64,000 bases of DNA, from the sequence record MN850574.1, one strand, 5' to 3'. This stretch comes from Escherichia phage kaaroe. The notes under the pieces were generated by a model. The model saw only the letters and a list, made by a program, of their open reading frames with translations. It made no database searches and was not told the origin of the DNA. This document shows, in pieces, positions 2 to 41,871 of this stretch (its first letter is position 1; each line of letters begins with the position of its first letter). The position numbers and the translations under genes were made by a program.

Positions 2-331
2 GATTTAGTAGAAATCAACATTCTGACAGAACAACGTCAGAAGAACATTTTCTCTATCTATCTGAATACGGTCGCCGGACAATATCGCGAAATGAAGAAA
101 GAGAATCCAAAATTTAAACCAGATTGGGATTCCTTCTGGACGATGAAGCGTATGTTCTTGAATGTAAAAGCATTACCAGCTTGCACCATTCATAAGTCAC
201 AAGGGATCAGCGTAGACCGCGTGTTCCTGTATACTCCTTGCATGTGTACAGACAATGTTGACTTTGAACTGGCAATGCAGTTATTATATGTGGGTGTTAC
301 CCGTGCGCGGTATCGAGTAGACTATATTTGA
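2..331 (+). CDS. dda: SF1 DNA helicase, C-terminal fragment (Dda-like); 5' end upstream of window
   Basis: Frame open from window edge; helicase motif VI-like TIHKSQG...VGVTRAR; lies upstream of dexA as in T4. Confidence 0.55.
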   Translation, partial: DLVEINILTEQRQKNIFSIYLNTVAGQYREMKKENPKFKPDWDSFWTMKRMFLNVKALPACTIHKSQGISVDRVFLYTPCMCTDNVDFELAMQLLYVGVTRARYRVDYI

Positions 332-341
332 GGAAATTATT

Positions 342-509
342 ATGATTATGCGAAGTATCCCAGAATTTAATGATGTGACGGTAAGCCGTCACAATGGAAC
401 TGTTACCATGTGCTTTAGATGGGGTCTATACGGCTGGAACGTGTCCGGCGATAGTGAAGCTGCATGTATCAATAAAATGATCGAGCATTTCACTAAGCGA
501 GGGTTTTGA
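342..509 (+). CDS. hypothetical protein (55 aa)
   Basis: ORF read from sequence (MIMRSIPEF...); GAGGAA Shine-Dalgarno 7 nt upstream. Confidence 0.45.
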   Translation: MIMRSIPEFNDVTVSRHNGTVTMCFRWGLYGWNVSGDSEAACINKMIEHFTKRGF

Positions 510-510
510 T

Positions 511-753
511 ATGGTTGTTATTAATAATGTGGCTAATGTAATACATCTACAATCAATTGTCGCGTGGAACCGTCAAAAGATTCATTGTGACTATGCACAA
601 CATGTAATGAATTTTAACAACAAAGTACGCGCATACATGGCAACGGAACGACTGTTAACCGATAATTACGGTAACGGGATTATTGATTGTAGCGGTTTCA
701 TTCTGGATAAAAACGATCTGGAGTTGTTCCGGCATATCGCGGAGGATATTTAA
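511..753 (+). CDS. hypothetical protein (80 aa)
   Basis: ORF track; start immediately follows previous stop. Confidence 0.45.
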   Translation: MVVINNVANVIHLQSIVAWNRQKIHCDYAQHVMNFNNKVRAYMATERLLTDNYGNGIIDCSGFILDKNDLELFRHIAEDI

Positions 754-754
754 A

Positions 755-1423
755 ATGCTTCCAGTGGATTTAATGATTGACTTTGAAAGTTTAGGTTATC
801 CGCCTGATGGGGCGGTTATCAATATGGCGGCAATCGGATTTAAAGAAGATCCGCACAATCCACCTACATTTAAAGAACTGGTTGGCAATTCCTTTCTGGT
901 AAAATTTGATATTCCTTCCCAGAAAGGTGTAAGGGTGTTTGATCATGGTGTGGTTGAATGGTGGAAGAATACCACCTCAGAAGGCATGAGAAAGCAATTA
1001 ATCACAAATGGTACGGAAGTATCAACTAAAGAAGGTTTAGCGCGTTTTAACGCATTCTGTGAAGCCGTAGGAGTAGATCCGGTTAAATCCGTATTGTGGT
1101 CACGCGGTAATGCGTTTGATATTCCGTTACTAGTTGATATGATCCGCCGTGCACACAATACACGAGAGACGTTCAGCCTTGAACCTGTGCGATTCTGGAA
1201 TATCCGAGATGTTCGCACCGCCATTGAGCGTACATTGATGCATCGCGGGATGTGTGAGTGTCCGTTACCAATGGGTACGCTAGATGGTTTTATCGCACAT
1301 GATGCAATTCATGATTGCGCTCGCGATATTCTTATGCTAATCTATGCACAACGTTATGCTATGGGTCTGGAAGACCTACCAGAAAATCCAGATCCAAATT
1401 CAGTTAAGAAACAAAGGGGATAA
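755..1423 (+). CDS. dexA: exonuclease A (DnaQ-like 3'-5' exonuclease)
   Basis: Internal ATG with GGAGGA SD; DxE exo motif (LMIDFESLGY); similarity to T4 DexA; synteny dda-dexA. Confidence 0.8.
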   Translation: MLPVDLMIDFESLGYPPDGAVINMAAIGFKEDPHNPPTFKELVGNSFLVKFDIPSQKGVRVFDHGVVEWWKNTTSEGMRKQLITNGTEVSTKEGLARFNAFCEAVGVDPVKSVLWSRGNAFDIPLLVDMIRRAHNTRETFSLEPVRFWNIRDVRTAIERTLMHRGMCECPLPMGTLDGFIAHDAIHDCARDILMLIYAQRYAMGLEDLPENPDPNSVKKQRG

Positions 1424-1424
1424 T

Positions 1425-1598
1425 ATGCCATTATACGATTATTCTTGTGAAGAACACGGTCAATTTCAGAAAATCCGCAAAATTTCCGAGCGTGAAAAGG
1501 CAGAATGCCCTGAATGCGGTAAAGAATGCAAACAGGGATTGACTGCCCCGCGCGGGATTAATGGCGGGTACTATGATAAAAATGTGCGCGTGTCATGA
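1425..1598 (+). CDS. small zinc-ribbon protein (FmdB-like, CxxC...CxxC)
   Basis: MPLYDYSCEEHGQF...CPECG; two CxxC pairs; starts right after dexA stop. Confidence 0.5.
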   Translation: MPLYDYSCEEHGQFQKIRKISEREKAECPECGKECKQGLTAPRGINGGYYDKNVRVS

Positions 1599-1697
1599 GT
1601 CATATACTTGACAATCACTCAATTTTTAATATGATTGTTGCAGCCGTCTTTGTGGCGGTTGCAGTAAGTTATGGTTATGTTATGAAGAGGTTTAATA

Positions 1698-3521
1698 ATG
1701 AGTGAGTTTCGCATTTTATCTGATCGTGAACATGTCCTTAAGCGTGCAGGAATGTATATAGGATCAACAACTTACGAAGAACATCAACGTTTCCTGTTCG
1801 GTAAATGGACAAAAATTTCATACGTTCCTGGACTGGTTAAAATCATTGATGAGATCATCGACAACTCTGTAGACGAGGCGATCCGCACTAACTTTGAATT
1901 TGCCAATGTGATTAGCGTCGATATCCAAAACAATATTGTTACTGTAACAGACAATGGTCGCGGTATTCCTCAACATATGGTTACTACCCCAGAGGGTACG
2001 CAGATTCCGCAACCTGTCGCCGCATGGACACGAACAAAAGCAGGGTCTAACTTTGATGATACCAATCGATTAACGCAAGGGATGAACGGTGTGGGGTCGT
2101 CGTTGTCAAATTTCTTTAGCGATTGGTTTACTGGTGTGACCTGTGACGGCGAAACAGAAATGACCGTTCAATGTACAAACGGTGCTGAAAATATCACATG
2201 GTCATCGAAACCATCAAAATTGAAGGGAACAAAGGTTACATTTTGCCCAGACTTCGACCACTTCGAAGGTTATATGATGGGCAACTCTGTTTTAGATATT
2301 GTTCATGATCGTCTGCAATCATTGAGCGTAATATTTCCTAAGATCACGTTTAAGTTTAATGGTAAACGTATTGTTAGTAAGTTCAAGGATTATGCTAAAC
2401 TATACAATGATGATCCGTTTGTCATTGAAGATAAAAACTTTTCACTTGCCCTAGTTCCTGCGGTCGAGGGAGAAGGTTTTAAATCAGTATCCTTTGCTAA
2501 TGGTCTGTTTACCAAAAACGGGGGAACACACGTTGATTATGTGACAGATGATCTTTGTGAAGAGATTGTAAAACGAATCAAGAAAGAATATAAGGTTGAT
2601 GTTACTAAAGCTGCGGTTAAGTCTGGATTGACCTGTATTCTTATTGTTCGTGAATTGCCTAACCTTCGTTTTGATTCACAGACAAAAGAACGATTGACTA
2701 ATCCAACTGGTGATATCAAGCGTCATATTGATCTTGATTTTAAAAAGCTGGCTAAAGTCATTGCTAAGAAAGAAAACATTATCATGCCTATTATTGCTGT
2801 AGTCCTGGCACGCAAAGAGGCAGCAGATAAAGCGGCAGCGACTAAGGCAGCAAAGGCAGCGAAACGGGCTAAGGTGGCAAAACACGTTAAAGCTAACCTT
2901 ATTGGAACTGACGCAGAAACTACCCTGTTTTTGACGGAAGGTGATTCCGCGATCAACTATCTGATCTCTGTACGTGATCAAGATTTACATGGAGGTTTCC
3001 CGTTGCGAGGCAAAACTCTTACAACGTGGGAACAACCGGAGGCAAAGATCGTTAAGAACGCCGAAATTTTTAACATCATGGCGATCACTGGCTTGCAATT
3101 TGGTGTTGATGCATTGGAAGTTATGCAATACAAAAATATTGCGATTATGACCGACGCTGATACTGACGGGATCGGGTCTATTAAACCTAGTCTGATCTCT
3201 TTCTTTGCACGTTGGCCTGAATTGTTCGAAGATGGACGAATCCGGTTTATCAAAACACCTATTATCATTGCGGAACCAAAGAAAGGTGATGATGTTCGAT
3301 GGTATTATGACCTAGAAGATTTCGAGAACGACCGAGATAATATCAAAGGTTACAACATTCGATATATCAAAGGTTTAGCATCGCTCACAGAATCAGACTA
3401 TCATCGCGTGATCAACGATCCTGTCATGGAGATCATCACGTTACCGGAAAACTATAAAGAGCTATTCGATTTGCTCTATAGTGAAGATGCAGATCAGCGC
3501 AAAATTTGGATGCAATCATAA
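1698..3521 (+). CDS. 39: DNA topoisomerase II large subunit (GyrB-like; gp39 and gp60 regions in one continuous ORF)
   Basis: 607 aa; GHKL ATPase motifs (DNSVDEAI, DNGRGIP, GMNGVGSS) and Toprim motifs (LTEGDSA, MTDADTDG); T4 gp39-like N-terminus. Confidence 0.93.
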   Translation: MSEFRILSDREHVLKRAGMYIGSTTYEEHQRFLFGKWTKISYVPGLVKIIDEIIDNSVDEAIRTNFEFANVISVDIQNNIVTVTDNGRGIPQHMVTTPEGTQIPQPVAAWTRTKAGSNFDDTNRLTQGMNGVGSSLSNFFSDWFTGVTCDGETEMTVQCTNGAENITWSSKPSKLKGTKVTFCPDFDHFEGYMMGNSVLDIVHDRLQSLSVIFPKITFKFNGKRIVSKFKDYAKLYNDDPFVIEDKNFSLALVPAVEGEGFKSVSFANGLFTKNGGTHVDYVTDDLCEEIVKRIKKEYKVDVTKAAVKSGLTCILIVRELPNLRFDSQTKERLTNPTGDIKRHIDLDFKKLAKVIAKKENIIMPIIAVVLARKEAADKAAATKAAKAAKRAKVAKHVKANLIGTDAETTLFLTEGDSAINYLISVRDQDLHGGFPLRGKTLTTWEQPEAKIVKNAEIFNIMAITGLQFGVDALEVMQYKNIAIMTDADTDGIGSIKPSLISFFARWPELFEDGRIRFIKTPIIIAEPKKGDDVRWYYDLEDFENDRDNIKGYNIRYIKGLASLTESDYHRVINDPVMEIITLPENYKELFDLLYSEDADQRKIWMQS

Positions 3522-3524
3522 CAC

Positions 3525-3563
3525 TTGACATACAAGGGAGATTCTCTATAATGGGAGTCTCCC
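3525..3563 (+). promoter_or_regulatory. sigma70-type early promoter with palindromic spacer (PeSL-like)
   Basis: TTGACA, 16-nt spacer, TATAAT; -10 sits between inverted repeats GGGAGA/TCTCCC. Confidence 0.55.
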
Positions 3564-3586
3564 TTTTCTTTTATGAGGATTTAACG

Positions 3587-3886
3587 ATGAGCAAAAAGAA
3601 TAACATGATGATGAGTATGGCAAAGTTCATGGAAGCAGACCTGATCAAAAATACAGTACAGCATGAACGCCAGCGAGAAGCCGCAGTGATTGCAGAACAA
3701 GGTTTTCAGGTTATCCGCAATCCACCTAAAGATACGATTAAATCGAAATACAGAGAAGATCTGAAAGACCATGAAGTACGGGAACTGGTTAATGATCTGC
3801 GTGACATTGCCATCAAATATCATGGTTATCAGTGCTTACGAGAACTGATCGCAGAGCGAGTAATGGATGCATTGAAAAAAGATTAA
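3587..3886 (+). CDS. hypothetical protein (99 aa)
   Basis: Internal ATG of track ORF 3506-3886, preceded by GAGGA SD and the promoter at 3525. Confidence 0.55.
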   Translation: MSKKNNMMMSMAKFMEADLIKNTVQHERQREAAVIAEQGFQVIRNPPKDTIKSKYREDLKDHEVRELVNDLRDIAIKYHGYQCLRELIAERVMDALKKD

Positions 3887-3893
3887 AAATCTG

Positions 3894-3928
3894 TTGACAC
3901 TGGATCGGGGATATATCATAATGTCCCC
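3894..3928 (+). promoter_or_regulatory. sigma70-type early promoter with imperfect inverted repeat around -10
   Basis: TTGACA, 17-nt spacer, CATAAT; flanked by GGGGATAT/ATGTCCCC. Confidence 0.5.
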
Positions 3929-3952
3929 ATCGAAAACAAAAGGTTGACTTAT

Positions 3953-4147
3953 ATGAAACCGTTTAAGAATGAAGAAACTCAAAAATTTTGTGAAAAAATT
4001 GCAGAAATCTACTTGACAGGGAATAAGGAAAAAGCTAATATTATGTTCAAAGAGTCAGTTTCCATGATGAAAGTAGCACGCTGGGAACTGATCGCAATGC
4101 AAGACCAAATTCGTTATCTAGTAACAAAGGAGAATCAAAATGCGTAA
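3953..4147 (+). CDS. hypothetical protein (64 aa)
   Basis: ATG downstream of the TTG start used in the ORF track. Confidence 0.5.
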   Translation: MKPFKNEETQKFCEKIAEIYLTGNKEKANIMFKESVSMMKVARWELIAMQDQIRYLVTKENQNA

Positions 4148-4334
4148 CCATTACATCGAATTGGCAAGCCGTAAAGTTTCAGACCTGAAAGGCGTAATTG
4201 CTTACTATGAAGAAGTCCTGAAAAACGAAATTGCCGAGTGGGAACGTAAAGAATACAGCAAGTGCTTAGAGAAAAGCCGCGCTGAACTGGTTGACGCAGA
4301 AGCCCATCTGCAATGGGTAATTGAAAATGTATAA
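4140..4334 (+). CDS. hypothetical protein (64 aa)
   Basis: ORF track; start overlaps previous stop (coupled). Confidence 0.5.
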   Translation: MRNHYIELASRKVSDLKGVIAYYEEVLKNEIAEWERKEYSKCLEKSRAELVDAEAHLQWVIENV

Positions 4335-4345
4335 GGAGTAGAAAA

Positions 4346-4603
4346 ATGAGTCGAAGTTTTGATTTTATGATCGCCAAGTGTCATAGAGAAAAGAAATCGA
4401 TGGACCTATTTATGAAATGTCTGAGATATGAATATGCGCACCTTCGTAAACACAAAATTGACCCGCAAGTTTCCTACGAAAACATCAAGAAATATGCGAA
4501 AGAAGTGATTGACAACGATTGCACCGTGACATATAATGCGTTTATTGATTTATGGGCGTGGGATGTAATCTACGCAGAGATGGACAAAGAAGATTTTAAT
4601 TAA
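4346..4603 (+). CDS. hypothetical protein (85 aa)
   Basis: ORF track; AGGAG SD. Confidence 0.5.
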   Translation: MSRSFDFMIAKCHREKKSMDLFMKCLRYEYAHLRKHKIDPQVSYENIKKYAKEVIDNDCTVTYNAFIDLWAWDVIYAEMDKEDFN

Positions 4604-4617
4604 GTGAGGATTATATT

Positions 4618-6726
4618 ATGAAAATGCATATTGATAATGAAGAAGTATTTGGCAGTGACTTGAGCGGTGCGGTTGATTTTTCACTGAAAGCAAGTAGCAA
4701 GGCTTTTATGGTGCTTTCTAAGAACACTTATCAATATTGTGAACGTGCTTGCGTCCGTGAGTATTCGTGCAATGCTACCGACACTCACAAAGAAGCCGGA
4801 ACCTTAGATCGTCCGTTTGATATTCATTTACCGACTGCAATCGAACCGTATTTTTCTGTGCGTGATTATGGTACTGGTATTCCGTCTAAGAAAGAATTAG
4901 AACAACTGTTTACGGTTTACTTTGAATCAACAAAAGACCAGACTAATGATTATATCGGATCTTTTGGTTTAGGTGCGAAATCTGCTTATAGCTATACCGA
5001 CACCTTTACAATCGTAAACTATTACAATGGTCGCGCTTATGGCTTTACGGCATTTGTGCAAAACTCTATGCCGAAAATGGTGCAGATTTTCGACGAACCG
5101 ACCTATGAAGACAACGGTCTGAAAATCACTATTCCGGTGAAAGAAAAAGACATTCAGACATGGCATCGAGAAGCGCAATTTGTACTGCGTCATTTTGGGG
5201 AACACAAACCTAATATCAATGCAATCGAAATTAATTATTTCCCTAGCTTTGATAATTATTATGTGTGTAATGGGCGTGATAACGATTCCTATGTAGTATA
5301 TGCAATCATGGGTAAGATCCAGTATCCGATCCCGTATGAATATGTTCGCGGAACATGGTTAGAAGCTGTAAACCGCCAGCACCAGACCATTTACATTAAT
5401 TTTGAGTTGGGTGATCTGGACCTTATGCCATCGCGTGAAGAAGTTCACTTGTCAATTGAGACTAAAGCGAACATCGAAAAACGCATTGCAGAAATCAATG
5501 AAATGATGTTGGAAAAGGTTAAAGAAAAGATCGCCAACATTAAAACAGAGCGTAAACTTGCGCAATTTATGAGCGAGTATTCATCGACTCAACGCAATAT
5601 TATTAGCAAGATGGGTAAGATCGGACAATGGGACGATCCGGTAGCAATCTATAATAAGTTTGTTAATGCGGGTAAAGATTCGCCTAATGACGTAGAAGGT
5701 CAGGTGTATACTCTGTATCGTACTCGTCACACAATAAGTAAATTGCGCCCTGCTTTCGTTAGCAGTCAATACAACATTACGCATTTTGTATGGATGCATA
5801 AAGAAGATATTACGTGTCTTATTGATGATACCGATAAACCGAAACTGCGTGCACTGACTCTTAACGGCATGGTCCAGGAATACGGCATCAATAAAAAGGT
5901 ACTGGTGTTCCGTCAGAAAAACGAAAAACATATGGAGACTTTCGAGTACATCAAACAGTATTATGATGATTCTGAAATGACCGTGATTAAAGTGTCTGAG
6001 GCCGATGATCTGCGTGCTAAAGCAGTTAAACCGGAGAAGACCGAGCGTACACAACGTGAAGCGACTCCTAAGCTGCCTAACGTGTATATCATGGAAAAGA
6101 TTGGTGACAGTTGGCATAAAACCAGCCATCACATGAAAGCGGCAGAGATTCGCGAGTTATCAGGCTTGCACATGTTCCGCGTAGGTGATGCATTCGAAAG
6201 CCGTAGTCGTAAATCGATCCATAGTGAAAATACATTACACACGGCGCTTGACTACTTCGGGGTAACAAAGTATATTATTACTCGAAACGAGACACAAAAA
6301 TATCTCGTTGACGAACAATTGGAATGTGCGCTAGAATTTGTTCGCGGTAAGCTGGCTGGTCTGGCTAAGAAGGTTAAGACCAATCATCTGGGGTATGGCG
6401 AATATCTGGGTGTGATCACTATGTTGTTTCATGACGATGAACTAGAACGCTGTGTTCCAGAATTTATTGACAGACTGTACGGTCGTCATTATAATAAAGA
6501 GGTTTCCAAGTTACTCCTTCGTACTCGTTGGATTATGGACGCAGAAACTAAAAAGATTTGTGATGAAAAATTCACGGTAGCAAACGAACGAATTAAAGCA
6601 GTTTGTGCGAAGTTTAAAGAGAATAGCCCGTTACTGTATGATATTGTAGATAACTGGTATCGTATTCTGCATAATGACAAACGCGCACAAGACTTTATGA
6701 AACTGGTTAAGAATGTTAAATTTTAA
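4618..6726 (+). CDS. rIIA: rIIA protein (membrane-associated, GHKL ATPase-like N-terminal domain)
   Basis: 702 aa; HATPase-like motifs (DYGTGIP, GSFGLGAKSAY); rIIA-rIIB-like pair following gene 39 as in T4. Confidence 0.85.
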   Translation: MKMHIDNEEVFGSDLSGAVDFSLKASSKAFMVLSKNTYQYCERACVREYSCNATDTHKEAGTLDRPFDIHLPTAIEPYFSVRDYGTGIPSKKELEQLFTVYFESTKDQTNDYIGSFGLGAKSAYSYTDTFTIVNYYNGRAYGFTAFVQNSMPKMVQIFDEPTYEDNGLKITIPVKEKDIQTWHREAQFVLRHFGEHKPNINAIEINYFPSFDNYYVCNGRDNDSYVVYAIMGKIQYPIPYEYVRGTWLEAVNRQHQTIYINFELGDLDLMPSREEVHLSIETKANIEKRIAEINEMMLEKVKEKIANIKTERKLAQFMSEYSSTQRNIISKMGKIGQWDDPVAIYNKFVNAGKDSPNDVEGQVYTLYRTRHTISKLRPAFVSSQYNITHFVWMHKEDITCLIDDTDKPKLRALTLNGMVQEYGINKKVLVFRQKNEKHMETFEYIKQYYDDSEMTVIKVSEADDLRAKAVKPEKTERTQREATPKLPNVYIMEKIGDSWHKTSHHMKAAEIRELSGLHMFRVGDAFESRSRKSIHSENTLHTALDYFGVTKYIITRNETQKYLVDEQLECALEFVRGKLAGLAKKVKTNHLGYGEYLGVITMLFHDDELERCVPEFIDRLYGRHYNKEVSKLLLRTRWIMDAETKKICDEKFTVANERIKAVCAKFKENSPLLYDIVDNWYRILHNDKRAQDFMKLVKNVKF

Positions 6727-6737
6727 GAGGTGATATT

Positions 6738-6869
6738 ATGACTAAACTGACCGCTATCCAGAAAGAAACCATCCGTAAACAATACGCTCGCGGCTTGACT
6801 AAAGGCGAACTGGCACGAATCTATAATGTATCAGACCGCACAATCCGCAAGGTTGTCGAAGCAAAATAA
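6738..6869 (+). CDS. small helix-turn-helix protein (43 aa)
   Basis: MTKLTAIQKETIRKQYARGLTKGELARIYNVSDRTIRKVVEAK; classic HTH pattern; below ORF-track size cutoff. Confidence 0.5.
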   Translation: MTKLTAIQKETIRKQYARGLTKGELARIYNVSDRTIRKVVEAK

Positions 6870-6881
6870 TTCTGGTATAAT
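6853..6881 (+). promoter_or_regulatory. candidate sigma70 promoter for rIIB
   Basis: TTGTCG, 17-nt spacer, TATAAT, followed by a short hairpin at about 6892-6908. Confidence 0.4.
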
Positions 6882-6931
6882 GATGTGAATCGGGCGGCGA
6901 TAGTCGCCCAACTAATAGAGGAATGAATACT

Positions 6932-12632: not shown

Positions 12633-13391
12633 ATGAAAAACATTATCGCTGCTATCGTTCTTTCTGCTACTGCTTTCGGTGCTAACGCTGCGTCCTTTGA
12701 TTGCGCTAAAGCTACTACCAAATCAGAGAAGTTTATTTGTGCTAATGAGTCTATCTCCGCACTGGACTCTAAACTTCATGAGGTGTATGTTAAGGCTGTT
12801 AAGATTGATCCGTCTCTGAAACAAGAGCAACGAAACTGGAATAAAACTGTTCGTGATACAATGATCAATATAGGGCAGATTCAGCCACTGGAGGCTGTAT
12901 ATAACGCTCAAATCCAAAACTTGATGAATGTATTACCTAAAGAAGAAACCGCGTCAGAAAGCGATTCAGAGACTTCTGCGAAGGTTGAAGAAGAACAACC
13001 GAAACAGGAAGCAAAAGTGGTAGAAGAACCGAAGGTCGAAACTTTTACCTATCAATGTACCGTTCGTTATGAGTGGAGTATGAAAGATGGAATTTCCACA
13101 AAAATTAAAGAGGCTCCACTGTATGCAAAATATGGAAACCAGCCAGGGGATCTTAAAGTAACCATTAAAAATGGGAAGATGGTTGATTTTGTATACACTG
13201 ATGAATACAACGTACACAAAGCAAACGTACAAGAAACCGTTATGACTAAAGGCGGGTTTTATAAGAATGTTGGCAAGAAAGATCTATATGAATACTCCGT
13301 TTTCGAACCAAACGACGGAACTATTCGATTTGAAAAACGTCATCCTACATTCGGTGGAGCAATTGATGTAGATCAATACGTTTGCAAGTAA
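12633..13391 (+). CDS. secreted protein with DUF1311/LprI-like N-terminal domain
   Basis: Signal peptide MKNIIAAIVLSATAFGANA; FDCAKATTKSEKFICANESISALDSKLHEVY pattern. Confidence 0.5.
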   Translation: MKNIIAAIVLSATAFGANAASFDCAKATTKSEKFICANESISALDSKLHEVYVKAVKIDPSLKQEQRNWNKTVRDTMINIGQIQPLEAVYNAQIQNLMNVLPKEETASESDSETSAKVEEEQPKQEAKVVEEPKVETFTYQCTVRYEWSMKDGISTKIKEAPLYAKYGNQPGDLKVTIKNGKMVDFVYTDEYNVHKANVQETVMTKGGFYKNVGKKDLYEYSVFEPNDGTIRFEKRHPTFGGAIDVDQYVCK

Positions 13392-15687: not shown

Positions 15688-16344
15688 TTATCTAATCCTT
15701 CCGAGGATTCTGGCAGATTGATTGCAAAGAGTATCTAAATTCTCAATGTCAATATCCGGTTTATTCTTCCATGAAATGGCGATACTACCAGAATAGACAT
15801 TATCGAGATTGAATATAGGACAAGAATACATGAAACCTATATCGATATTCTCTAATTTCTTTTCTCTTGATGGAATATACTGGAAATCTTTATCGGTAAA
15901 ATATGATTTACCTAAAAGATGCCTACGATATTCTTCACTCGTTTTATTGATAGGGAATCCGCCTAAATTTTTTTCATCGATTGTGTGAGGTAGCTTTCCT
16001 TCATATGCCACCAAATCAACAAAATAGTTTAGGTTTTTCGGACGAAAACTAAAAACAGCAGAAAAATCGGCATCAGCCGACACATGAACTATCTGTAACT
16101 GCTCCTGTGCTGCATTATCAAAATTGCGGTCTTTCTCTACCTGGAGAATGTGAGCATAAGTCTCATAACGAGTCTCTTTATAAAGCGCAAATAACTCGTT
16201 TTTACTATAAACGACAAATGCTAATATGGACAACACGACGGCAGCAAAAACACGAAGTACGAGCAACTCCGTGCTTTTAGTTGTGAAAATAGCGCGCAGG
16301 ACATTTGAGATAGCAAAGTCTTTCCCTTTTTCAGAAACTTGCAT
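15688..16344 (-). CDS. t: holin (T4 t-type, single N-terminal TMD with large periplasmic domain)
   Basis: 218 aa; strong similarity to T4 holin T (LQIVHVSADADFSAVFSFRPKNLNYFVDLVAYEGKLP, ...CNQSARILGRIR). Confidence 0.9.
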   Translation of the reverse strand: MQVSEKGKDFAISNVLRAIFTTKSTELLVLRVFAAVVLSILAFVVYSKNELFALYKETRYETYAHILQVEKDRNFDNAAQEQLQIVHVSADADFSAVFSFRPKNLNYFVDLVAYEGKLPHTIDEKNLGGFPINKTSEEYRRHLLGKSYFTDKDFQYIPSREKKLENIDIGFMYSCPIFNLDNVYSGSIAISWKNKPDIDIENLDTLCNQSARILGRIR

Positions 16345-16377: not shown

Positions 16378-16617
16378 TTATTTAGGTAGTTGACTATCAC
16401 TAGGTTTATCTTGCTCGTTACTATCTTCTGACTGATCTTTATTAAACTCCTTATAAAGTTCTTCCACAAAACGATCATCAATTGGCGTATTGGTATAAGC
16501 CGCAAGACGACGAGCGCAATAGAAGAAAATTTTAGTGAGCATCTTTTCACTAATTAACTTTGACAATAATTTCATTCCGAAATTAGACAAAGCACCAATG
16601 ACGATATTATAGACCAT
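16378..16617 (-). CDS. hypothetical small protein (79 aa) at the position gp38 occupies in T4
   Basis: ORF track; AAGGAG SD 8 nt upstream; hydrophobic N-terminus, acidic tail. Confidence 0.45.
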   Translation of the reverse strand: MVYNIVIGALSNFGMKLLSKLISEKMLTKIFFYCARRLAAYTNTPIDDRFVEELYKEFNKDQSEDSNEQDKPSDSQLPK

Positions 16618-16657
16618 AGCCGTTTCTCCTTAGTAGTTCCCTTCCCTGGGAGTTTCC

Positions 16658-19420
16658 TTAATTCTTTTTAAGTTCCGCTAGTTCAGCTTTAACGGCATTC
16701 AATTCTTCGCTCATTTCCTGAAACGCCTTAATTAAAAGAGCGTTGACAGCAGAGTTAGAAATTGTTAAGATCTCTTCTGGCTTATCGGGATCGCCGATGT
16801 TAGAAGTTGTTACTGCTTCCGGTAATTCTTTTTCAAGATCCTGAGCAATAATACCAACTTCATGAGCAATGACAGTACGGTCGGTTAAAGATTTAACCTT
16901 GTCATAGGTGTATACCGTCAAGCGATTAACTTTATCAGTGGCATTCTCCTTATACTCTTCCTTGTTGATTTTAAGGCGAGCATCAGAGCGAATGTAAACG
17001 TCGTTAAAGTTACCATTGCGTCCAGCTTGGAAATCGCCGTTTTTATAGAAGGTAGTATTAGATTCAACACCAGAACCTTTAACATGAACTCGCCATGAAC
17101 CTTCATTAAGAAGCATACCCAACGAGAATGTTACTGCACCTTGAACATAACGTTGCTTGATCAAAGGAACATATGTAGACGCATCACCACGGTCTAAACG
17201 TTGGAAAATAGGTGCTTTGACGTTATCATCATGTTGAGATGCAAAAGAACCAGCACCCGCAGAACCAGAATCTATAGTAATGACGCTAGCGCCGCGTTGA
17301 ATAGCATTACCAAAATTCAGACTACCGCCTACGTTAGCATCGCTTCCGCTATAGAAAGAACCTGCAACAGAGAACTTAACCGGACCAGTTCCACCCGCAG
17401 TACGTTCGGTATACCAATGATAACTTGTTGCATCCGTACATTCAAAAACTTGTTTTCGTGATTCATTACCCCATGTATGGAGACTAAATTGCGAAGAAGA
17501 ACCACGGTTAGCATGGAATGTAATTTCGCCAGATTCTACACGCACAAATCCTTTAAATCGCGCAGTAATTTCACCGGTTGCCATTTTACGTTCAGTTGTG
17601 AAGTGTGCACCGCTATTGTCTTCAAACTGCAAAATGTTATCACGGGCGTTATTGCTATCACCCCAATGGTTGATTTTAAAGAAATCACGAGATCCTAATC
17701 GTCCACTAGAGAAATGAAGGAAACCTTTTTCTACATAAACATCACCCGTAAAACGAGCGGCTTTGCTTGCACGTTCTAACGTTAATGCAGCTTCGTTACC
17801 GTCACCGCCTAATTGAACGTTACCGGAAGTCAAATCGTAAATGAATGGTCGGTTGCCGTTCCACCCACCAAAACGATCATTTTCGGCAGTAGAAAGAAGA
17901 TAAACTTTAGTGCCGTCATTACGCCAGAATGCACCATAATTACCAAAGATCATACGGTATGCATCAGAATTGGCAGCTACATATTGACCATTAGTGTATA
18001 CAATTTTGGTTGCACCTGCGCTTAAAGATACTTGACCACTTGCTTCTAGCTTAACAAAGTTTTTACCTTCGTCACTATACCATTGAAAATCGTTGGTTTC
18101 TGTAGAACCAAAACCAAACCAGCCTTGACGTTTATTAGCCCCGTCTCGCTGATCCATATATTCAAAATAGTTACTACAACCAGTAGGACGCCACATACGA
18201 ATCGCGTTATTGCCTTGCAGATGAAGTCTATTGACAAATAAACCATCACTACCAACAATTTTTAATACTTCTTTTTGGTCGGTGGAACCAGTAGCCAAAC
18301 GATACACATCACCTTGAACAGTTTCATGCCATATTGTTTCCGCCGCACGACTGCGGAATTTACGCATATATTTTTTATTGTTGTCTGGTACGTTATTAAG
18401 GCTCACAATATCATAGGTTGCTTGTGAGTTATTATCAAACATCAACGTTCCGGCTTTGTTTTCTGTGTTGAACATCGTAATAACACGAGCATCAAATTTA
18501 GTTCCGGTTGCTGGTGCAGTCGCCGAAAATTCAGGAACATCATAAACAGTCAATGCGACGTCAACAGTTTTTCCAAACTCTACAATAACGTTATCGGTGT
18601 AACGACCATAGTTAACATAAATGTCATAGTTATCACCGGAAGTATTAATTGCAAATACTTCATGGACGTTCAAAGAATTTCGACGATATGCAGCAATAGT
18701 AACACCTTTAGGATTTCCATTCCCACCACGAATCACGATTTCAAGGAAATCCACCTGGTCGTAGGATTTAACATTAAATCCGTTTCCACCATAGATACGA
18801 ATAAATGCCATTTTTCCTTGCTGGGGGATCATTGCGGTTGCAATCTTAAAGTAGCCACGAGTTGCGTCACCGGAAGGAACAGACATTTTAACGTTCTTAA
18901 CAAACATACGGTCAATTTCTTGTTTGCTATAAACGTTCAATTCTCCTGGAGTTGGTTTATCACCTTCGTGATACATTTTATAACTAAATGCTTTTTGACC
19001 TTCTCTATTATAGCCATAAGTTTCTACACGCGATCCAGTGTGCCCATACTGGAAAGTAAATCCTCGACCATGTTGGACACCGGAAGAGTGAGGAACGTTT
19101 AGCGTGAGTTCGAGAAGACCATCAAGACCATTGGTACGGAAAGCGCCAAAGTAGTTAAGATCTCTCGCTGTCTGATCTTCCAGATAGTTAGCGGTTTTAC
19201 TTAAGATATAATTATTACCTTTAACCTTACCCGCCATTGTAACATCGCGGTCATAAACCGGAGGACAACTTAAATTGATAATAGTACCGGAATCATTTTT
19301 AGTAAGAAGATATTGATCCGCAAGGTTGATTGCCAATTCCCCCGGATTCATCGTACTAGCATCAGGTTTACGACCTTTAGTGCTAGTGCGTTTAAATTGG
19401 ATTCTGCTTAAATCTGCCAT
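16658..19420 (-). CDS. 37: long tail fibre distal subunit
   Basis: 920 aa; N-terminus MADLSRIQFKRTSTKGRKPDASTMNPGELAINL resembles T4 gp37. Confidence 0.88.
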   Translation of the reverse strand: MADLSRIQFKRTSTKGRKPDASTMNPGELAINLADQYLLTKNDSGTIINLSCPPVYDRDVTMAGKVKGNNYILSKTANYLEDQTARDLNYFGAFRTNGLDGLLELTLNVPHSSGVQHGRGFTFQYGHTGSRVETYGYNREGQKAFSYKMYHEGDKPTPGELNVYSKQEIDRMFVKNVKMSVPSGDATRGYFKIATAMIPQQGKMAFIRIYGGNGFNVKSYDQVDFLEIVIRGGNGNPKGVTIAAYRRNSLNVHEVFAINTSGDNYDIYVNYGRYTDNVIVEFGKTVDVALTVYDVPEFSATAPATGTKFDARVITMFNTENKAGTLMFDNNSQATYDIVSLNNVPDNNKKYMRKFRSRAAETIWHETVQGDVYRLATGSTDQKEVLKIVGSDGLFVNRLHLQGNNAIRMWRPTGCSNYFEYMDQRDGANKRQGWFGFGSTETNDFQWYSDEGKNFVKLEASGQVSLSAGATKIVYTNGQYVAANSDAYRMIFGNYGAFWRNDGTKVYLLSTAENDRFGGWNGNRPFIYDLTSGNVQLGGDGNEAALTLERASKAARFTGDVYVEKGFLHFSSGRLGSRDFFKINHWGDSNNARDNILQFEDNSGAHFTTERKMATGEITARFKGFVRVESGEITFHANRGSSSQFSLHTWGNESRKQVFECTDATSYHWYTERTAGGTGPVKFSVAGSFYSGSDANVGGSLNFGNAIQRGASVITIDSGSAGAGSFASQHDDNVKAPIFQRLDRGDASTYVPLIKQRYVQGAVTFSLGMLLNEGSWRVHVKGSGVESNTTFYKNGDFQAGRNGNFNDVYIRSDARLKINKEEYKENATDKVNRLTVYTYDKVKSLTDRTVIAHEVGIIAQDLEKELPEAVTTSNIGDPDKPEEILTISNSAVNALLIKAFQEMSEELNAVKAELAELKKN
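16661..16987 (-). other. C-terminal intramolecular chaperone domain of gp37 (predicted autoproteolytic)
   Basis: SDARLK motif then ~105 aa ending in coiled-coil AVKAELAELKK, as in T5 pb1 / endosialidase chaperone domains. Confidence 0.6.
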
Positions 19421-19458
19421 TTTATAAAATCCTTAAACGGTTATTAGAATAATATTAT

Positions 19459-19485
19459 TTAGAAAAGCGGGGATTGTCTCCCCGC
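19459..19485 (-). terminator. hairpin between genes 36 and 37 (terminator or attenuator)
   Basis: GCGGGGA / TCCCCGC stem; on the minus strand followed by TTTTCT. Confidence 0.45.
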
Positions 19486-19490
19486 TAAAA

Positions 19491-20981
19491 TTAGAAAGTA
19501 CCAAAATCAATCACCGCATTAAGTGGAACTGCGCCAACATCAGCCGGAGTAGGTTTATTACCTTCATGATAAAGCTGATAGCGGTCCACGGTTTGAGTAT
19601 TGTTTCTAGAACGGAAAAACACGACCTTTGAGTCGTGGGTGATCCCCAGCTTTTCGGTCCCTTTAATATCACTAATGCGGTGAATCATAGCAGTACCATC
19701 AGCACCGCTTAACGCCGCATAACAGTTATCCCCGTTATAGTTAGTTTTAGCTGTTCTAACACCGTTTGCAGCCGGAACAGTTAACGGTCCTGTCATGGTA
19801 TCGCCAGTGACGTTAACATAGCGAATATCAGCCAATTTACGGTGATCTACATAGTTCCATGCAGTCCATGATTCATTAGAACACGAACGCCAGCACATCG
19901 GATGGTCAATAGATTCAGGATAATACACCTGAACAATTCGACGAGTACCAACAGCATCTTCTGGGCGATATACCATCAAAACGCCGTTATAATAGCTATC
20001 AGACGGTTTATTAGTACCTGATCCAGCATTTTCCACACGATAGATACCGCGATTAATAAGAGTGTTCCAATCAACGTTTCCAATGATGGTTGGATTTGCT
20101 ACCATTGATTTTCTCTCAAAGTAGCTCAAACGAACCAATTCATTAGGACCAGCAGGATCGTTTGTCGCCAACATTCTAGGCGCTTGCAAGTTACCTTCCA
20201 TAATATCACCAGCACGTTTAACCTGTGCATCATTGGTGACATTGCCTAGCCCAACATCGGCTTTAGTTGGTTTATTGTTGGTGTGATAAAAACGACCTTC
20301 TCTGCCATTAACAAAAATGGTAGGCTCATCTTTACTTCGGAAGACCAACGTGTCAAGAACGTTACCATAATAGATCTTAGTCGCATCAAAATTAATTAAA
20401 TCACGTTCCCTTGCAATTAATTTCGAATCAACCGATAGTTTAACAGTGACAGTGTTTAAATTATATGTTCCTGTGAGGGTATCACCGCGACGAGACACCA
20501 AATCTAAATCATTATTCGTTGGTTTATTAACAGGGCTATAGACGCGTTGACCTGTGTCTTTAATGGTTGTCCCTTCGATAGTCCCTTTAGACTTAAATTC
20601 GCCCGTTGTGGTGTCAATATACGCCATAATAACGCCATCACGGGCATTAACAAAGCCGATTGACTTCCATGAATGCAAACCCCAGCTTACGCCGTCAAAA
20701 TTAGCAGCGTCGCTCTGACCTTTAAAGATACCATTCTTTTTGGTTTCTCCAGCCGATGCGCTACCTACGCTTAAACCTTCCTCGAAATGAACTTGCTTTT
20801 GAAATGTGCCACCTTCGGATGCACTAACAGCATCAAAATCGGTAGCCGAAGGTCTATCAAAAGCGGTATAGATTTTATGACCTTTGTAGAAAAGCTGATC
20901 CCCCGCTGGCTGGATCGTCAAGTTTCCTTGCGTCCAAATGGGAGATCCACCTACAGTAGATCCATATTTCAAATCTGCCAT
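19491..20981 (-). CDS. 36: long tail fibre protein gp36 (enlarged, 496 aa)
   Basis: N-terminus MADLKYGSTVGGSPIWTQGNLTIQPAGD resembles T4 gp36. Confidence 0.85.
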   Translation of the reverse strand: MADLKYGSTVGGSPIWTQGNLTIQPAGDQLFYKGHKIYTAFDRPSATDFDAVSASEGGTFQKQVHFEEGLSVGSASAGETKKNGIFKGQSDAANFDGVSWGLHSWKSIGFVNARDGVIMAYIDTTTGEFKSKGTIEGTTIKDTGQRVYSPVNKPTNNDLDLVSRRGDTLTGTYNLNTVTVKLSVDSKLIARERDLINFDATKIYYGNVLDTLVFRSKDEPTIFVNGREGRFYHTNNKPTKADVGLGNVTNDAQVKRAGDIMEGNLQAPRMLATNDPAGPNELVRLSYFERKSMVANPTIIGNVDWNTLINRGIYRVENAGSGTNKPSDSYYNGVLMVYRPEDAVGTRRIVQVYYPESIDHPMCWRSCSNESWTAWNYVDHRKLADIRYVNVTGDTMTGPLTVPAANGVRTAKTNYNGDNCYAALSGADGTAMIHRISDIKGTEKLGITHDSKVVFFRSRNNTQTVDRYQLYHEGNKPTPADVGAVPLNAVIDFGTF

Positions 20982-21015: not shown

Positions 21016-21023
21016 TATTTATA
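21016..21023 (-). promoter_or_regulatory. T4-type late promoter (TATAAATA) for gene 36
   Basis: Exact TATAAATA on the minus strand about 35 nt upstream of the gene 36 start. Confidence 0.6.
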
Positions 21024-26126: not shown

Positions 26127-26134
26127 TATTTATA
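26127..26134 (-). promoter_or_regulatory. T4-type late promoter (TATAAATA) for gene 34
   Basis: Exact TATAAATA on the minus strand ~28 nt upstream of the ATG, then AAAAGGAG SD. Confidence 0.65.
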
Positions 26135-40398: not shown

Positions 40399-41503
40399 CG
40401 GATCTGATACGTTCTATTACAAAGATGAAATTACGGCGATGCAAACCCGTATGCGCATTTTTAGTTATCTGTACTTGAGCAAACCGGAAATGTGGAATAA
40501 ACCAGATGCGTTAGAGTGTCGCGGGATCATGTTTGAAATTGACGATAAAGGTCGTCCGGTCCGCATCGCATCTCGTCCTATGGAGAAGTTTTTTAATTTG
40601 GGTGAGAATGATCGCGCTCGCTTTAAGCCGGAAGATGTGGAAATGGTCATGGACAAAATGGACGGTAGTCTAGTAAGCACATACATTGATAACGGCTATG
40701 TTCAGTTGAAGTCTAAAGCGGCCTTGTACTCAAGCCAGGCAGAGAGAGCAAACGGTCTTCTGTATTCAGAGAAGTATGCGGATCTACGCGCTAAGATTGC
40801 TGATATTGGGTCTGATTATACTTTCAACTTTGAATATACAGCGCCCAGCAACCGAATTGTTGTAGAATATTCTGAACCGTCGCTAACACTTCTGAATGTA
40901 CGCCATAACGTCACAGGAGAGTACGTACCGCATCAAATGCTATTTTCTGACGCAATCCTACGTCCTCATCTGGTAAATGCGTTACAGGTTGATTCAGCGC
41001 GTTTTAGCAATATTCTTGATGAAGTTCGGACCGCAGAAGGTATCGAAGGAATTGTTGCACGCACTAAAGACGGTCAAATGTTCAAAGTGAAGAGTGAATG
41101 GTATATTGGTGTGCATAACATTAAAAACACATCGATGTTTCCTAATAACCTGATCTACTATGTCGTAGAAAGCGAAACCGATGATTTGCGTGCTGCATAT
41201 GAAGGCGAACCGGAAGCACTGGAACGAATCGAGCTATTCGAGGAAGCATTCAGGTCTATTCTTCGCAATGCCTTCACGACAGCAACAGAATTTTATAACG
41301 CACACGCGGGAGAAGACAGAAAGACATATGCATCAAATGCGACTATCGAATCACGTAAACATGGTGATGCACAAGCATATATTTTCATGTGTCTGATGAT
41401 TGCATTTGATGGTCTTGATTATGACCGTATTCTGGATTCAATGAAAACTTACTATCTACGGAATTATAAGAAACTTATTCCGGCTGATAAGATTGATTGG
41501 TAA
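40334..41503 (+). CDS. rnlA: RNA ligase 1
   Basis: 389 aa; adenylation motif KMDGSL; strong similarity to T4 Rnl1 (DALECRGIMFE, VRIASRPMEKFFNL, DRKTYA). Confidence 0.9.
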   Translation: MSTKENNKKVLALFKNLMALCDGSDTFYYKDEITAMQTRMRIFSYLYLSKPEMWNKPDALECRGIMFEIDDKGRPVRIASRPMEKFFNLGENDRARFKPEDVEMVMDKMDGSLVSTYIDNGYVQLKSKAALYSSQAERANGLLYSEKYADLRAKIADIGSDYTFNFEYTAPSNRIVVEYSEPSLTLLNVRHNVTGEYVPHQMLFSDAILRPHLVNALQVDSARFSNILDEVRTAEGIEGIVARTKDGQMFKVKSEWYIGVHNIKNTSMFPNNLIYYVVESETDDLRAAYEGEPEALERIELFEEAFRSILRNAFTTATEFYNAHAGEDRKTYASNATIESRKHGDAQAYIFMCLMIAFDGLDYDRILDSMKTYYLRNYKKLIPADKIDW

Positions 41504-41508
41504 TAATA

Positions 41509-41532
41509 AGCGGGGCTAGTTCCCCGCCTTTT
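41509..41532 (+). terminator. intrinsic terminator
   Basis: GCGGGG / CCCCGC stem followed by CTTTTG. Confidence 0.55.
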
Positions 41533-41547
41533 GTCGTTGGGGGTAAT

Positions 41548-41871
41548 ATGTCAAAGCTGATATACATTGTTATCATCTCTGTGTTGCTAGGGGTAGGTGG
41601 TAATATGTGGTGGGAAAATAAAAAGGAGGTAGATCGACTGAATCAGGAATTTACAGAGTATAAGAAAAAGACAGATGAAAAGATGAAGGTCGTAGACTCA
41701 CTACAAAAGGAGATGTACGGAATAAGAACTAAGTTTGCAGAAGAACAAAACAAAGCAATGAAAGACGCTACACGAGGCTATGTAGTAGCACAAAAACCAA
41801 AGTTGGTAGAGAAACAGCTTAATGATTCATTTAAGGAGTTTACCGAAGAATTAAAGGAGGCTACTAAATGA
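41548..41871 (+). CDS. membrane-anchored coiled-coil protein (107 aa)
   Basis: Internal ATG of track ORF after GGGGG SD; N-terminal TM LIYIVIISVLLGVGG. Confidence 0.5.
   Translation: MSKLIYIVIISVLLGVGGNMWWENKKEVDRLNQEFTEYKKKTDEKMKVVDSLQKEMYGIRTKFAEEQNKAMKDATRGYVVAQKPKLVEKQLNDSFKEFTEELKEATK

Follow-up and report, generated by a model that had tools for sequence, protein, structure and literature searches.

The self-cleaving chaperone of gp37 with the subsequent attachment of gp38, the displaced gene 38 (g38) and the host-range mutants in RB49 gp38 are already known. In S16, cleavage of the gp37 chaperone exposes the surface on which gp38 docks (PMC7917993). One gp38 monomer attaches once the gp37 chaperone has been removed (PMC9569957). 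In RB49, host-range mutations map to gp38 (E230K; PMC9569957), and the displacement of g38 in RB49-type phages has been stated explicitly (PMC3157838; bioRxiv 10.64898/2026.04.02.716166). In T4, the receptor is bound by the C-terminal domain of gp37 itself, and the protein called gp38 there, an assembly chaperone, is unrelated (PMC3157838).

Here, we analyze the fiber locus of Escherichia phage kaaroe within a 64,000-nucleotide (64-kb) stretch of its DNA (MN850574.1), referred to as the window. The window is 90-97% identical at the DNA level to RB49, MIZ6, FL38, GoldenSnicker and other krischviruses, and its best DNA matches in a phage collection have 96-97.6% identity; by these identities, it is the DNA of a Krischvirus, i.e., an RB49-like coliphage. 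We find that gp37 ends in a Peptidase_S74 domain with its catalytic residues in place, and that g38 lies elsewhere in all relatives checked. Altogether, kaaroe very probably has a standard RB49-like long-tail-fiber tip on the T2/T6/S16 plan, in which g38 is displaced and the 79-aa ORF beside the holin gene t belongs to a lysis pair (Table 1).

Table 1. Features of the fiber and lysis genes of kaaroe, with positions in the window
Feature	Position	Strand	Basis
gene t, T4-type holin, 218 aa	15688..16344	-	Pfam Phage_holin_T, E 4.5e-61
79-aa ORF, homologue of RB49 Dc5/RB49p252, PM2 P18 / Gp-l family	16378..16617	-	PF26925, phrog_402
gene 37, distal long-tail-fiber subunit precursor, 920 aa, 102.1 kDa	16658..19420	-	ORF list, phrog_1699
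Intramolecular chaperone / Peptidase_S74, aa 812-920, 109 aa, 12.17 kDa, predicted autoproteolytic removal	16658..16987	-	PF13884
Lys817 codon, predicted general base, Ser-x4-Lys spacing	16970..16972	-	SDARLK sequence
Ser812 codon, predicted nucleophile; scissile bond Arg811-Ser812	16985..16987	-	computed position, S16 alignment
Predicted mature gp37, aa 1-811, 89.9 kDa, ending ...GRNGNFNDVYIR	16988..19420	-	mass computed, boundary by alignment
gene 36-like fiber subunit, 496 aa, upstream of g37, same late block	19491..20981	-	phrog_16472, phrog_1425
T4-type late promoter consensus TATAAATA, upstream of g36	21016..21023	-	exact match

The product of gene 37 matches phrog_1699, "long tail fiber protein distal subunit," with an E value of 8e-152, and contains the Pfam domains Gp34_trimer (aa 418-528) and Peptidase_S74 (aa 812-871). 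The gene 36-like subunit matches phrog_16472 (E 0), phrog_1425 ("hinge connector") and, weakly, Pfam Phage_T4_gp36. The late promoter listed in Table 1 is the only exact copy of TATAAATA on the minus strand near the g36-g37-ORF79-t block. No exact copy is present in the 40-nt spacer between g37 and the 79-aa ORF or in the 33-nt spacer between this ORF and t; a search for a dedicated late promoter of either of the two genes gave only one-mismatch sites, at 19456-19463 and 17040-17047. A scan for sigma-70 promoters and terminators gave nothing better than chance level.

By sequence homology, the C terminus of gp37 is a genuine S74-type intramolecular chaperone, related to the domains of S16, T2-like and T5-like fibers. 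The match to Peptidase_S74 (PF13884) has an E value of 1.4e-11 and 44.9 bits against a cutoff of 22, and the domain makes up the extreme C terminus, i.e., the last 109 aa. In a PDB sequence search with gp37, the sole significant match was the S16 gp37 construct 6F45 (6F45_A, E 2.3e-6), in an alignment that takes in the entire chaperone domain with its SD(R/A)R(I/L)K motif and that pairs Ser812 with the second Ser of VS^SDRRIK in S16; weaker matches of the chaperone domain were the fiber 8JOV and MYRF. By tblastn, the module is also present in T2-like, T5-like and endosialidase-like fibers, and the gp37 C termini of RB14, ECML-134 and other T-even-type phages are 56-66% identical to that of kaaroe. 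The preliminary description of this locus had proposed a chaperone of the self-cleaving type at the SDARLK motif, and the Pfam match together with the intact Ser-x4-Lys pair bears out the chaperone domain. The ∼105 aa that it placed after the motif are 103 by computation, or 109 when counted from Ser812 to the stop codon, and the region that it singled out ends, at 16987, exactly with the Ser812 codon.

The Ser and Lys of this pair sit at the N-terminal edge of the domain with a spacing of five residues, which recurs in SDRRIK of S16. The Ser/Lys dyad has an established role in endoNF and T5 pb1. T2-like phages have DVYIR^SDGRLKI, a sequence that has been matched to the cleavage site of S16 (PMC7917993) and to which the kaaroe motif, DVYIR^SDARLKI, is nearly identical. 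We infer from homology that the chaperone of kaaroe gp37 is released by autoproteolysis; the boundary of the predicted mature protein was set by aligning kaaroe gp37 to DLNVS^SDRRIKK, where S16 gp37 is cut, and to the T2-like motif (PMC7917993), and the C-terminal end of this mature protein would be the end on which gp38 docks. For the C-terminal 200 aa, an AlphaFold2 model built from the single sequence had a mean pLDDT of 39 and was unusable, so the fold assignment is by sequence homology only; in this low-confidence model, the last ∼30 aa (AVNALLIKAFQEMSEELNAVKAELAELKKN) are helical (model residues 169-199).

The slot directly downstream of g37 does not contain g38. As had been described, the 79-aa ORF is the only ORF between g37 and the holin gene. 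A tblastn search of the whole 64-kb window with RB49 gp38 gave no match even at E = 10. By contrast, RB49 g38 is located at 45367-46143 (Pfam GP38, 7e-72; Gp38_N, 6e-18), ∼55 kb from g37, and the nearest relatives, MIZ6 (123322-124107) and FL38 (161725-162510), each encode a gp38 of 261 aa, the first ∼110 aa of which are nearly identical to those of RB49 gp38. In all three genomes, g38 is situated between the tk/rI block and the dam/endonuclease VII block. Near-full-length gp38 is encoded in 98 records; among the 60 matches listed, it is present in the close relatives RB49, Phi1, ECD7, ELT3, ELT4, AV108, TB34 and SAP as well as in pEJ01, Whisky, Cognac, 011D4, GoldenSnicker, PHB13, Makalu_001 and PTE-Eco09, and it was confirmed separately from this listing in MIZ6 and FL38. 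In all Krischvirus members checked, a set that does not include FL37, W115, Brandy, Delraymugoa, Aragogtheria, MIZ2/3, G37-3 and phiS, g38 lies ∼55 kb from g37, and coordinate mapping to relatives places the expected site in kaaroe ∼39 kb past the left end of the window. Thus, the earlier statement that gene 38 is absent holds for the slot and for the window but is not supported for the genome, as all relatives checked carry a displaced g38. The missing adjacent g38 is a genus-wide displacement, i.e., a feature of gene order and not of fiber construction, and the relatives point to a g38 in the kaaroe genome outside the window.

Within the genus, g37 of kaaroe is 90-95% identical at the DNA level to the g37 genes of other krischviruses, the chaperone domain is 92-100% conserved among krischviruses, and the neighboring shaft is mosaic. 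The C-terminal 164 aa of gp37 are 100% identical in kaaroe and FL38. Over the ∼150 aa that precede this conserved tip, kaaroe and RB49 have 8-20% identity. Because the N-terminal domains of gp38 are nearly the same despite this divergence between RB49 and kaaroe, the docking surface for gp38 on gp37 would, judging by these alignments, have to be small or structural. A metagenomic krischvirus-like contig (L015) encodes, in order, the chaperone end of g37, a g38 with Gp38_N and GP38 domains, a PF26925 ORF and holin T. This gene order indicates that the S74 domain and gp38 can share one locus and that the small ORF is not a replacement for g38.

The 79-aa ORF is preceded by a ribosome-binding site (AAGGAG) 8 nt upstream of its start. 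Its family is annotated as hypothetical in all phage records examined. The ORF matches phrog_402 with an E value of 5e-20, as does ORF l of PM2 (8e-14), and an hhalign comparison of its family with PM2 ORF l gave a probability of 88.7% and an E value of 2.6e-6. PF26925 (Phage_PM2_Gpl) is a precomputed annotation in all close homologues (61-92% identical), and the family name comes only from these homologue annotations; the ORF had no match in an NCBIfam scan or in a local Pfam scan, for which the Pfam copy lacked the PF26925 model. The protein has no clear transmembrane segment (maximum Kyte-Doolittle value of 1.4) and no strong amphipathic helix by hydrophobic moment. When a profile made from the alignment of the small ORF was run against 1.84 billion representative proteins, it returned only 19 matches, which are stand-alone proteins of 60-90 aa except for a 196-aa repeat protein (P0018; YKYTDTPADKRSVDDLHKR x six) that we judged to be a spurious motif match; no informative domain fusion of the family was present among the 19. 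The family adjoins holin T in the kaaroe window and in L012, L015, L017 and L018. In phage Mijalis, a homologue precedes a "putative holin," and in a Vibrio phage, one follows the lysozyme gene; in GAP52 and LAh_8, the homologue is in the tail module without linkage to lysis genes. A tie of the small ORF to fibers that end in S74 was considered and dropped, as the upstream fiber of Mijalis has gp37_trimer and Gp10_C domains without S74 and that of L012 has Gp10_C.

P18 is needed for disruption of the outer membrane at lysis, a function known for PM2 only (PMC9502842, PMC6356626), and homologues have been described in RB49 and Felix O1 (PMC1950889, 2007). We infer that PM2 ORF l is gene XVIII, encoding P18, because ORF k has a transmembrane segment, as would be expected for the holin-like P17. 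An Rz/Rz1-like identity of the two ORFs was dropped, since the paper behind it concerns PRD1. Based on family and gene neighborhood, the product of the 79-aa ORF of kaaroe is probably an accessory lysis protein that forms a pair with holin t. Krupovic and Bamford also reported P18 homologues in PaP3, P-SSM2, P-SSM4 and S-PM2 (PMC1950889), and Kongari et al. list all four of these phages, as well as PM2, as "spanin-less." The overlap of the two lists raises the tentative idea that the P18 family might be the missing outer-membrane disruptor of some spanin-less phages. Kaaroe has canonical T4-type spanins, PseT.3/PseT.2; that the ORF is a working accessory lysis factor beside them, acting in a spanin-independent breach of the outer membrane or as a partner of the T-holin, is a tentative suggestion that we regard as rather less likely than its alternatives taken together. 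For such a role of the family in lysis, an E. coli phage would provide a tractable system.

Other readings of the locus have to be weighed against a T2/T6/S16-type tip. Kaaroe might have no gp38 at all, so that the chaperone folds gp37 and the gp37 tip left by cleavage makes the contact with the receptor, in the manner of T5 pb1. Receptor-binding fibers that terminate in S74 do exist, e.g., those of the T5-like type, and g38 is found neither in the slot nor in the window; however, its expected site is beyond the left end of the window, the residues just before the cleavage site are a conserved T2-type motif, all relatives checked have a displaced g38, including FL38 with its identical gp37 end, and the host-range mutants of RB49 map to gp38 E230K (PMC9569957). 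We therefore consider a gp38-free fiber highly improbable. The preliminary description had favored precisely such a fiber, independent of gp38 and with a tip formed by gp37 itself. Neither part is supported: gp38 joins the fiber once the gp37 chaperone is gone (PMC9569957), and the chaperone and gp38 are not alternatives, because they act in sequence in T2/S16-type fibers (PMC7917993). A gp38 homologue elsewhere in the genome, named in that description as an argument against its own reading, is present in every relative checked. What can be kept is the narrower claim that the trimer probably folds by means of its built-in chaperone and not by means of a T4-type gp38 chaperone. Similarly, the S74 domain might have lost its cleaving activity and be kept on the virion fiber as a remnant, given that cleavage in kaaroe is predicted from homology. 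This, too, is very hard to reconcile with the data, since both Ser812 and Lys817 are in place, the domain is strongly conserved beside a mosaic shaft, the homologous domains of S16 and T2 are cleaved, and an uncleaved domain would block docking of gp38.

The position of the 79-aa ORF directly downstream of fiber genes, in Krischvirus as well as in Ounavirinae (Mijalis, Hena2), would also fit a fiber-assembly factor or a small adhesin-like protein that has taken over the role of g38. The homologues that GAP52 and LAh_8 have in their tail modules point in the same direction, and Trojet et al. (PMC3157838) considered that small ORFs after g37 may be chaperones or adhesins, with regard to Aeh1 and not to RB49. 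We nevertheless regard this role as unlikely. The ORF coexists with an adjacent g38 in L015, its holin T neighbor is constant while the upstream genes vary (an S74 fiber, a Gp10_C fiber or three inserted ORFs), the fiber upstream of the Mijalis homologue lacks S74, the Vibrio phage homologue follows a lysozyme gene, and the PHROG and Pfam family is common with PM2 ORF l, the putative P18.

We suggest the following model for the T2/T6/S16-type tip of kaaroe. gp37 would be made as a 920-aa precursor in which the last 109 residues are the S74-type chaperone. This domain would trimerize and drive folding of the upstream trimeric fiber. Subsequently, Ser812, helped by Lys817, would cut the Arg811-Ser812 bond to release a 12.2-kDa fragment, and the C terminus thereby exposed on the trimer of ∼90-kDa mature gp37 would dock one gp38 adhesin, by analogy with the described systems. 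gp38, in turn, would use its conserved N-terminal domain for docking and its glycine-rich C-terminal domain for the receptor. With g38 displaced ∼55 kb from g37 as in the genus, its gene would lie beyond the 64-kb window, and the 79-aa ORF and holin t would form a small late lysis pair in which the ORF is not a fiber gene. A missing adjacent g38 together with an S74 domain must, thus, not be read as a gp38-free fiber, and prediction or engineering of host range in such phages should target the displaced g38 and not the gp37 tip. The main value of these findings is correct annotation; the sole lead of some value is the P18-family gene beside holin t.

RB49, with its genus, is among the closest described systems. 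It has the same gene order of g36, g37, the 79-aa ORF (Dc5) and t, a chaperone domain that is ∼95% identical and a small ORF that is 97.5% identical; in contrast, the gp37 shaft of kaaroe is a mosaic unlike that of RB49, with a C-terminal half equal to FL38 and a middle equal to MIZ6. T4 gp37 occupies the same position in the fiber module and is homologous in its N-terminal and shaft regions, but kaaroe does not follow the T4-type plan, as its gp37 has the S74 domain at the C terminus, and T4 gp37 tip structures gave no match in the PDB sequence search. PM2 ORF l and the 79-aa ORF are both beside a holin-type gene at the end of the late operon; they have only ∼20% identity over 40 columns, the 79-aa ORF has an extra acidic 19-aa tail, and kaaroe has T4-type spanins whereas PM2 is listed as spanin-less. 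The gp37-gp38 tip of S16 (6F45) and the tips of T2 and T6 have a homologous chaperone with the SDxRxK motif, as in kaaroe, and adhesins of this type have the Gp38_N and GP38 architecture found in RB49 g38. In S16, T2 and T6, g38 immediately follows g37, unlike in kaaroe, and upstream of the cleavage site, S16 and kaaroe gp37 cannot be aligned beyond the last few residues. T5 pb1, which forms the L-shaped fiber, and the K1F endosialidase resemble kaaroe gp37 in having a Peptidase_S74 domain with a Ser/Lys motif at the C terminus of a trimeric fiber; however, the cleaved tip of T5 pb1 binds the receptor itself, whereas in kaaroe we propose that a separate adhesin is added after cleavage.

The preliminary description of this fibre locus, a chaperone-bearing C-terminus on the distal long-tail-fibre subunit gp37 and no gene 38 (g38), is confirmed as an observation, and its interpretation is half right: the lack of g38 beside g37 is a hallmark of Krischvirus (RB49-like coliphages) and probably not gene loss. 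The feature is already described for RB49-like phages and for T2/S16-type fibres generally.

The locus comprises four consecutive minus-strand genes, and the ORF list agrees that only a 79-aa ORF (ORF79) lies between g37 and holin t. The fibre/holin region has 90-95% DNA identity to krischviruses including MIZ6, FL38, GoldenSnicker, RB49, Phi1 and ECD7, and a separate 25-kb block of the window has 96-97.6% identity, again to Krischvirus. The window's plus strand is the RB49 minus strand, and on the RB49 map it runs from ~6.7 kb across the record ends to ~107 kb. Elsewhere, a 252-aa ORF with a clear signal peptide (MKNIIAAIVLSATAFGANAAS...) sits in the variable early region bounded by the topoisomerase gene and t; its conserved counterpart in RB49 is RB49p262 (hypothetical protein). 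A 161-aa ORF has a lipoprotein-type N-terminus (MKMIKLIGLAAAFMLTGC...) and matches phrog_16112 (unknown function; E 4e-109) and, weakly at its N-terminus, the Cor superinfection-exclusion family (E 0.006).

Features of the window and of related metagenomic contigs (own coordinates)
Feature	Coordinates	Strand	Details
252-aa ORF	12633-13391	+	
Holin t	15688-16344	-	Phage_holin_T, E 4.5e-61 (Pfam)
ORF79	16378-16617	-	79 aa
g37	16658-19420	-	920 aa
Late-promoter site within g37	17040-17047		one mismatch
g36-g37 spacer	19421-19490	-	
Late-promoter site in g36-g37 spacer	19456-19463		one mismatch
g36-like gene	19491-20981	-	
Late promoter upstream of g36	21016-21023		exact consensus
Late promoter upstream of g34	26127-26134		exact consensus
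PseT.3-like i-spanin	41497-41871	+	phrog_739, E 1e-26
PseT.2-like o-spanin	41868-42320	+	phrog_812, E 2e-32; match covers residues 54-150 only
161-aa ORF	58181-58666	+	
L015, region with the g37-t slot	2-2164		g38
L017, region with the g37-t slot	401-6921		three ~100-aa ORFs of unknown function
L012, region with the g37-t slot	149-4286		nothing; preceding fibre short (524 aa), Gp10_C-tipped

Near the block, the T4-type late promoter consensus occurs without mismatch only upstream of g36. Because the g37/ORF79 (40 nt) and ORF79/t (33 nt) spacers have no exact late promoter consensus and the nearby sites carry one mismatch, ORF79 and t are probably read through from g37 or transcribed from a weak internal promoter. 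In the g36-g37 spacer, a GC-rich hairpin (GCGGGGAGACAATCCCCGC) and TTTT directly precede TCTAAATA, which is one mismatch from the late-promoter consensus and ~36 nt ahead of the g37 start, a predicted terminator-then-promoter arrangement.

gp37 is assigned to the PHROG 'long tail fiber protein distal subunit' (E 8e-152), and Pfam places Peptidase_S74 ('chaperone of endosialidase') on aa 812-871 (E 1.4e-11; 44.9 bits, cut-off 22). The SDARLK motif starts at residue 812; the codon of its Ser (16985-16987) coincides exactly with the end coordinate of the feature as first described. From Ser812 to the stop are 109 aa with a computed mass of 12.17 kDa, giving for the 102.1-kDa precursor a predicted mature chain of 89.9 kDa. 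Together, coordinates, Pfam match and masses indicate that the SDARLK/chaperone observation is correct, well above chance. In tblastn, T-even-type gp37s carry the same module at 56-66% identity; T5-like and endosialidase-like fibres carry it at 30-44%. The sole significant match in a PDB sequence search is 6F45 chain A (E 2.3e-6), the gp37 fragment of Salmonella phage S16 crystallised with gp38, with an alignment that starts at SD(A/R)R(L/I)K and ends in the terminal helix; phage fibre 8JOV and the known S74 relative MYRF match less strongly. The Pfam, 6F45 and tblastn matches thus bear out the S74-type assignment. A single-sequence AlphaFold model of the C-terminus (mean pLDDT 39) was too poor to be informative. 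Mid-protein, aa 418-528 match Gp34_trimer (E 4.6e-28; Pfam), which serves trimerisation in the proximal fibre subunit; the gp37 of L017, a krischvirus-like metagenomic contig, likewise carries it. At the position aligned to the S16 cleavage site (DLNVS^SDRRIKK), T2-like Yersinia phages read DVYIR^SDGRLKI (PMC7917993) and the window reads DVYIR-SDARLKI, which predicts a cut at Arg811/Ser812; Lys817 sits at Ser-x4-Lys spacing from Ser812.

The absence of g38 had been read as pointing to a probably gp38-independent fibre, with gp37 itself as the receptor-binding tip. For the g37-t slot and the entire 64-kb window this absence holds, RB49 gp38 giving no tblastn match even at E = 10. It is unlikely to be a loss of the gene. 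RB49 gene 38 is annotated at 45367-46143, ~55 kb from g37 on the circularly permuted map, and its product carries Pfam GP38 (7e-72) and Gp38_N (6e-18). Near-full-length gp38 was found by tblastn in 98 records; the 60 of these that were listed include 16 close relatives of the window, a check that leaves out FL37, W115, Brandy, Delraymugoa, Aragogtheria, MIZ2/3, G37-3 and phiS. Direct inspection confirmed 261-aa gp38s at the same displaced locus in MIZ6 (123322-124107) and FL38 (161725-162510), with an N-terminal ~110 aa nearly identical to that of RB49 and variable glycine-rich C-terminal loops. A gp38 homologue elsewhere in the genome was thus present in every relative checked. The displaced g38 of RB49-like phages is on record (Trojet et al., PMC3157838), and for five krischviruses a 2026 preprint (10.64898/2026.04.02.716166) puts ~55 kb between gp38 and gp37. 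Efimov et al. (PMC9569957) describe gp38 joining the fibre once the gp37 chaperone has been removed, and host-range mutants carry gp38 E230K. Relatives and literature together contradict both gp38-independence and a gp37 tip. Coordinate mapping onto MIZ6 would place g38 about 39 kb past the window's left end. A narrower point survives: trimer folding probably proceeds via the built-in chaperone and not via a T4-type gp38 chaperone.

L015, a krischvirus-like metagenomic contig with the same downstream genes as the window, has in order a g37 end with the chaperone domain, a 265-aa gp38 (Gp38_N and GP38), the small ORF and holin T. Here the S74 domain and gp38 are found side by side at one locus, which also shows that the small ORF is no stand-in for g38. 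In krischvirus-like metagenomic phages, the interval from g37 to the P18-like ORF (named for the PM2 lysis factor) and t is a variable slot. The L012 contig, with a Gp10_C tip followed by the P18-like ORF, has the same arrangement as Ounavirinae, which suggests shared-module exchange.

Aligned with FL38, MIZ6 and RB49, gp37 is a recombinational mosaic, and its shaft is variable although the adhesin is gp38. Columns ~500-988 have 95-100% identity to FL38, and columns ~350-500 have 93-100% to MIZ6 but drop to 30-64% against FL38. Over the ~150 aa preceding the conserved tip, identity to RB49 is just 8-20%, the chaperone domain has ~95% across all aligned, and the C-terminal 164 aa are identical (100%) in FL38 and the window.

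Compared with the mosaic gp37 beside it, ORF79 is 96-100% conserved among krischviruses; a good ribosome-binding site, AAGGAG, precedes its start by 8 nt. ORF79 matches phrog_402 (E 5e-20), as does the 51-aa PM2 ORF l (E 8e-14); hhalign relates the family to ORF l at 88.7% probability, and all close homologues have a precomputed Pfam hit to PF26925 (Phage_PM2_Gpl). ORFs k and l are the final genes of the PM2 late operon and, because ORF k bears a transmembrane segment, as holin-like P17 is expected to, ORF l would correspond to P18. Outer-membrane disruption in PM2 needs P18 (PMC9502842, PMC6356626), and Krupovic and Bamford reported P18 homologues in PaP3, Felix O1, RB49, P-SSM4, S-PM2 and P-SSM2 (PMC1950889). 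In four T4-like contigs, the ORF79 homologue is directly upstream of holin T, whatever precedes it: g38, a Gp10_C fibre, or an S74 fibre with or without three further ORFs. The Ounavirinae homologue is flanked by a fibre lacking S74 and a 'putative holin', and that of a Vibrio phage follows a lysozyme gene; the position of the ORF within the tail module in GAP52 and LAh_8 indicates that linkage to lysis genes is not universal. Neither a clear transmembrane helix nor an amphipathic helix was found in ORF79. From homology and gene order, ORF79 is a reasonably likely accessory lysis protein that would work with t; this P18-family gene beside the holin is the one modest lead.

Canonical T4-type spanin genes are also present in the window, just upstream of pseT, so that spanins and a P18-family ORF coexist in this phage. 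Given the limited extent of its match, the o-spanin ORF probably has an internal true start. Of the listed P18-homologue carriers, Felix O1 and RB49 stand apart from the others, and RB49, placed in T4 spanin families (PMC6139136), does have spanins. Kongari et al. 2018 list PaP3, P-SSM2, P-SSM4 and S-PM2, as well as PM2 itself, as 'spanin-less', and this overlap between literature lists may hint that P18 homologues provide an alternative route of outer-membrane disruption.
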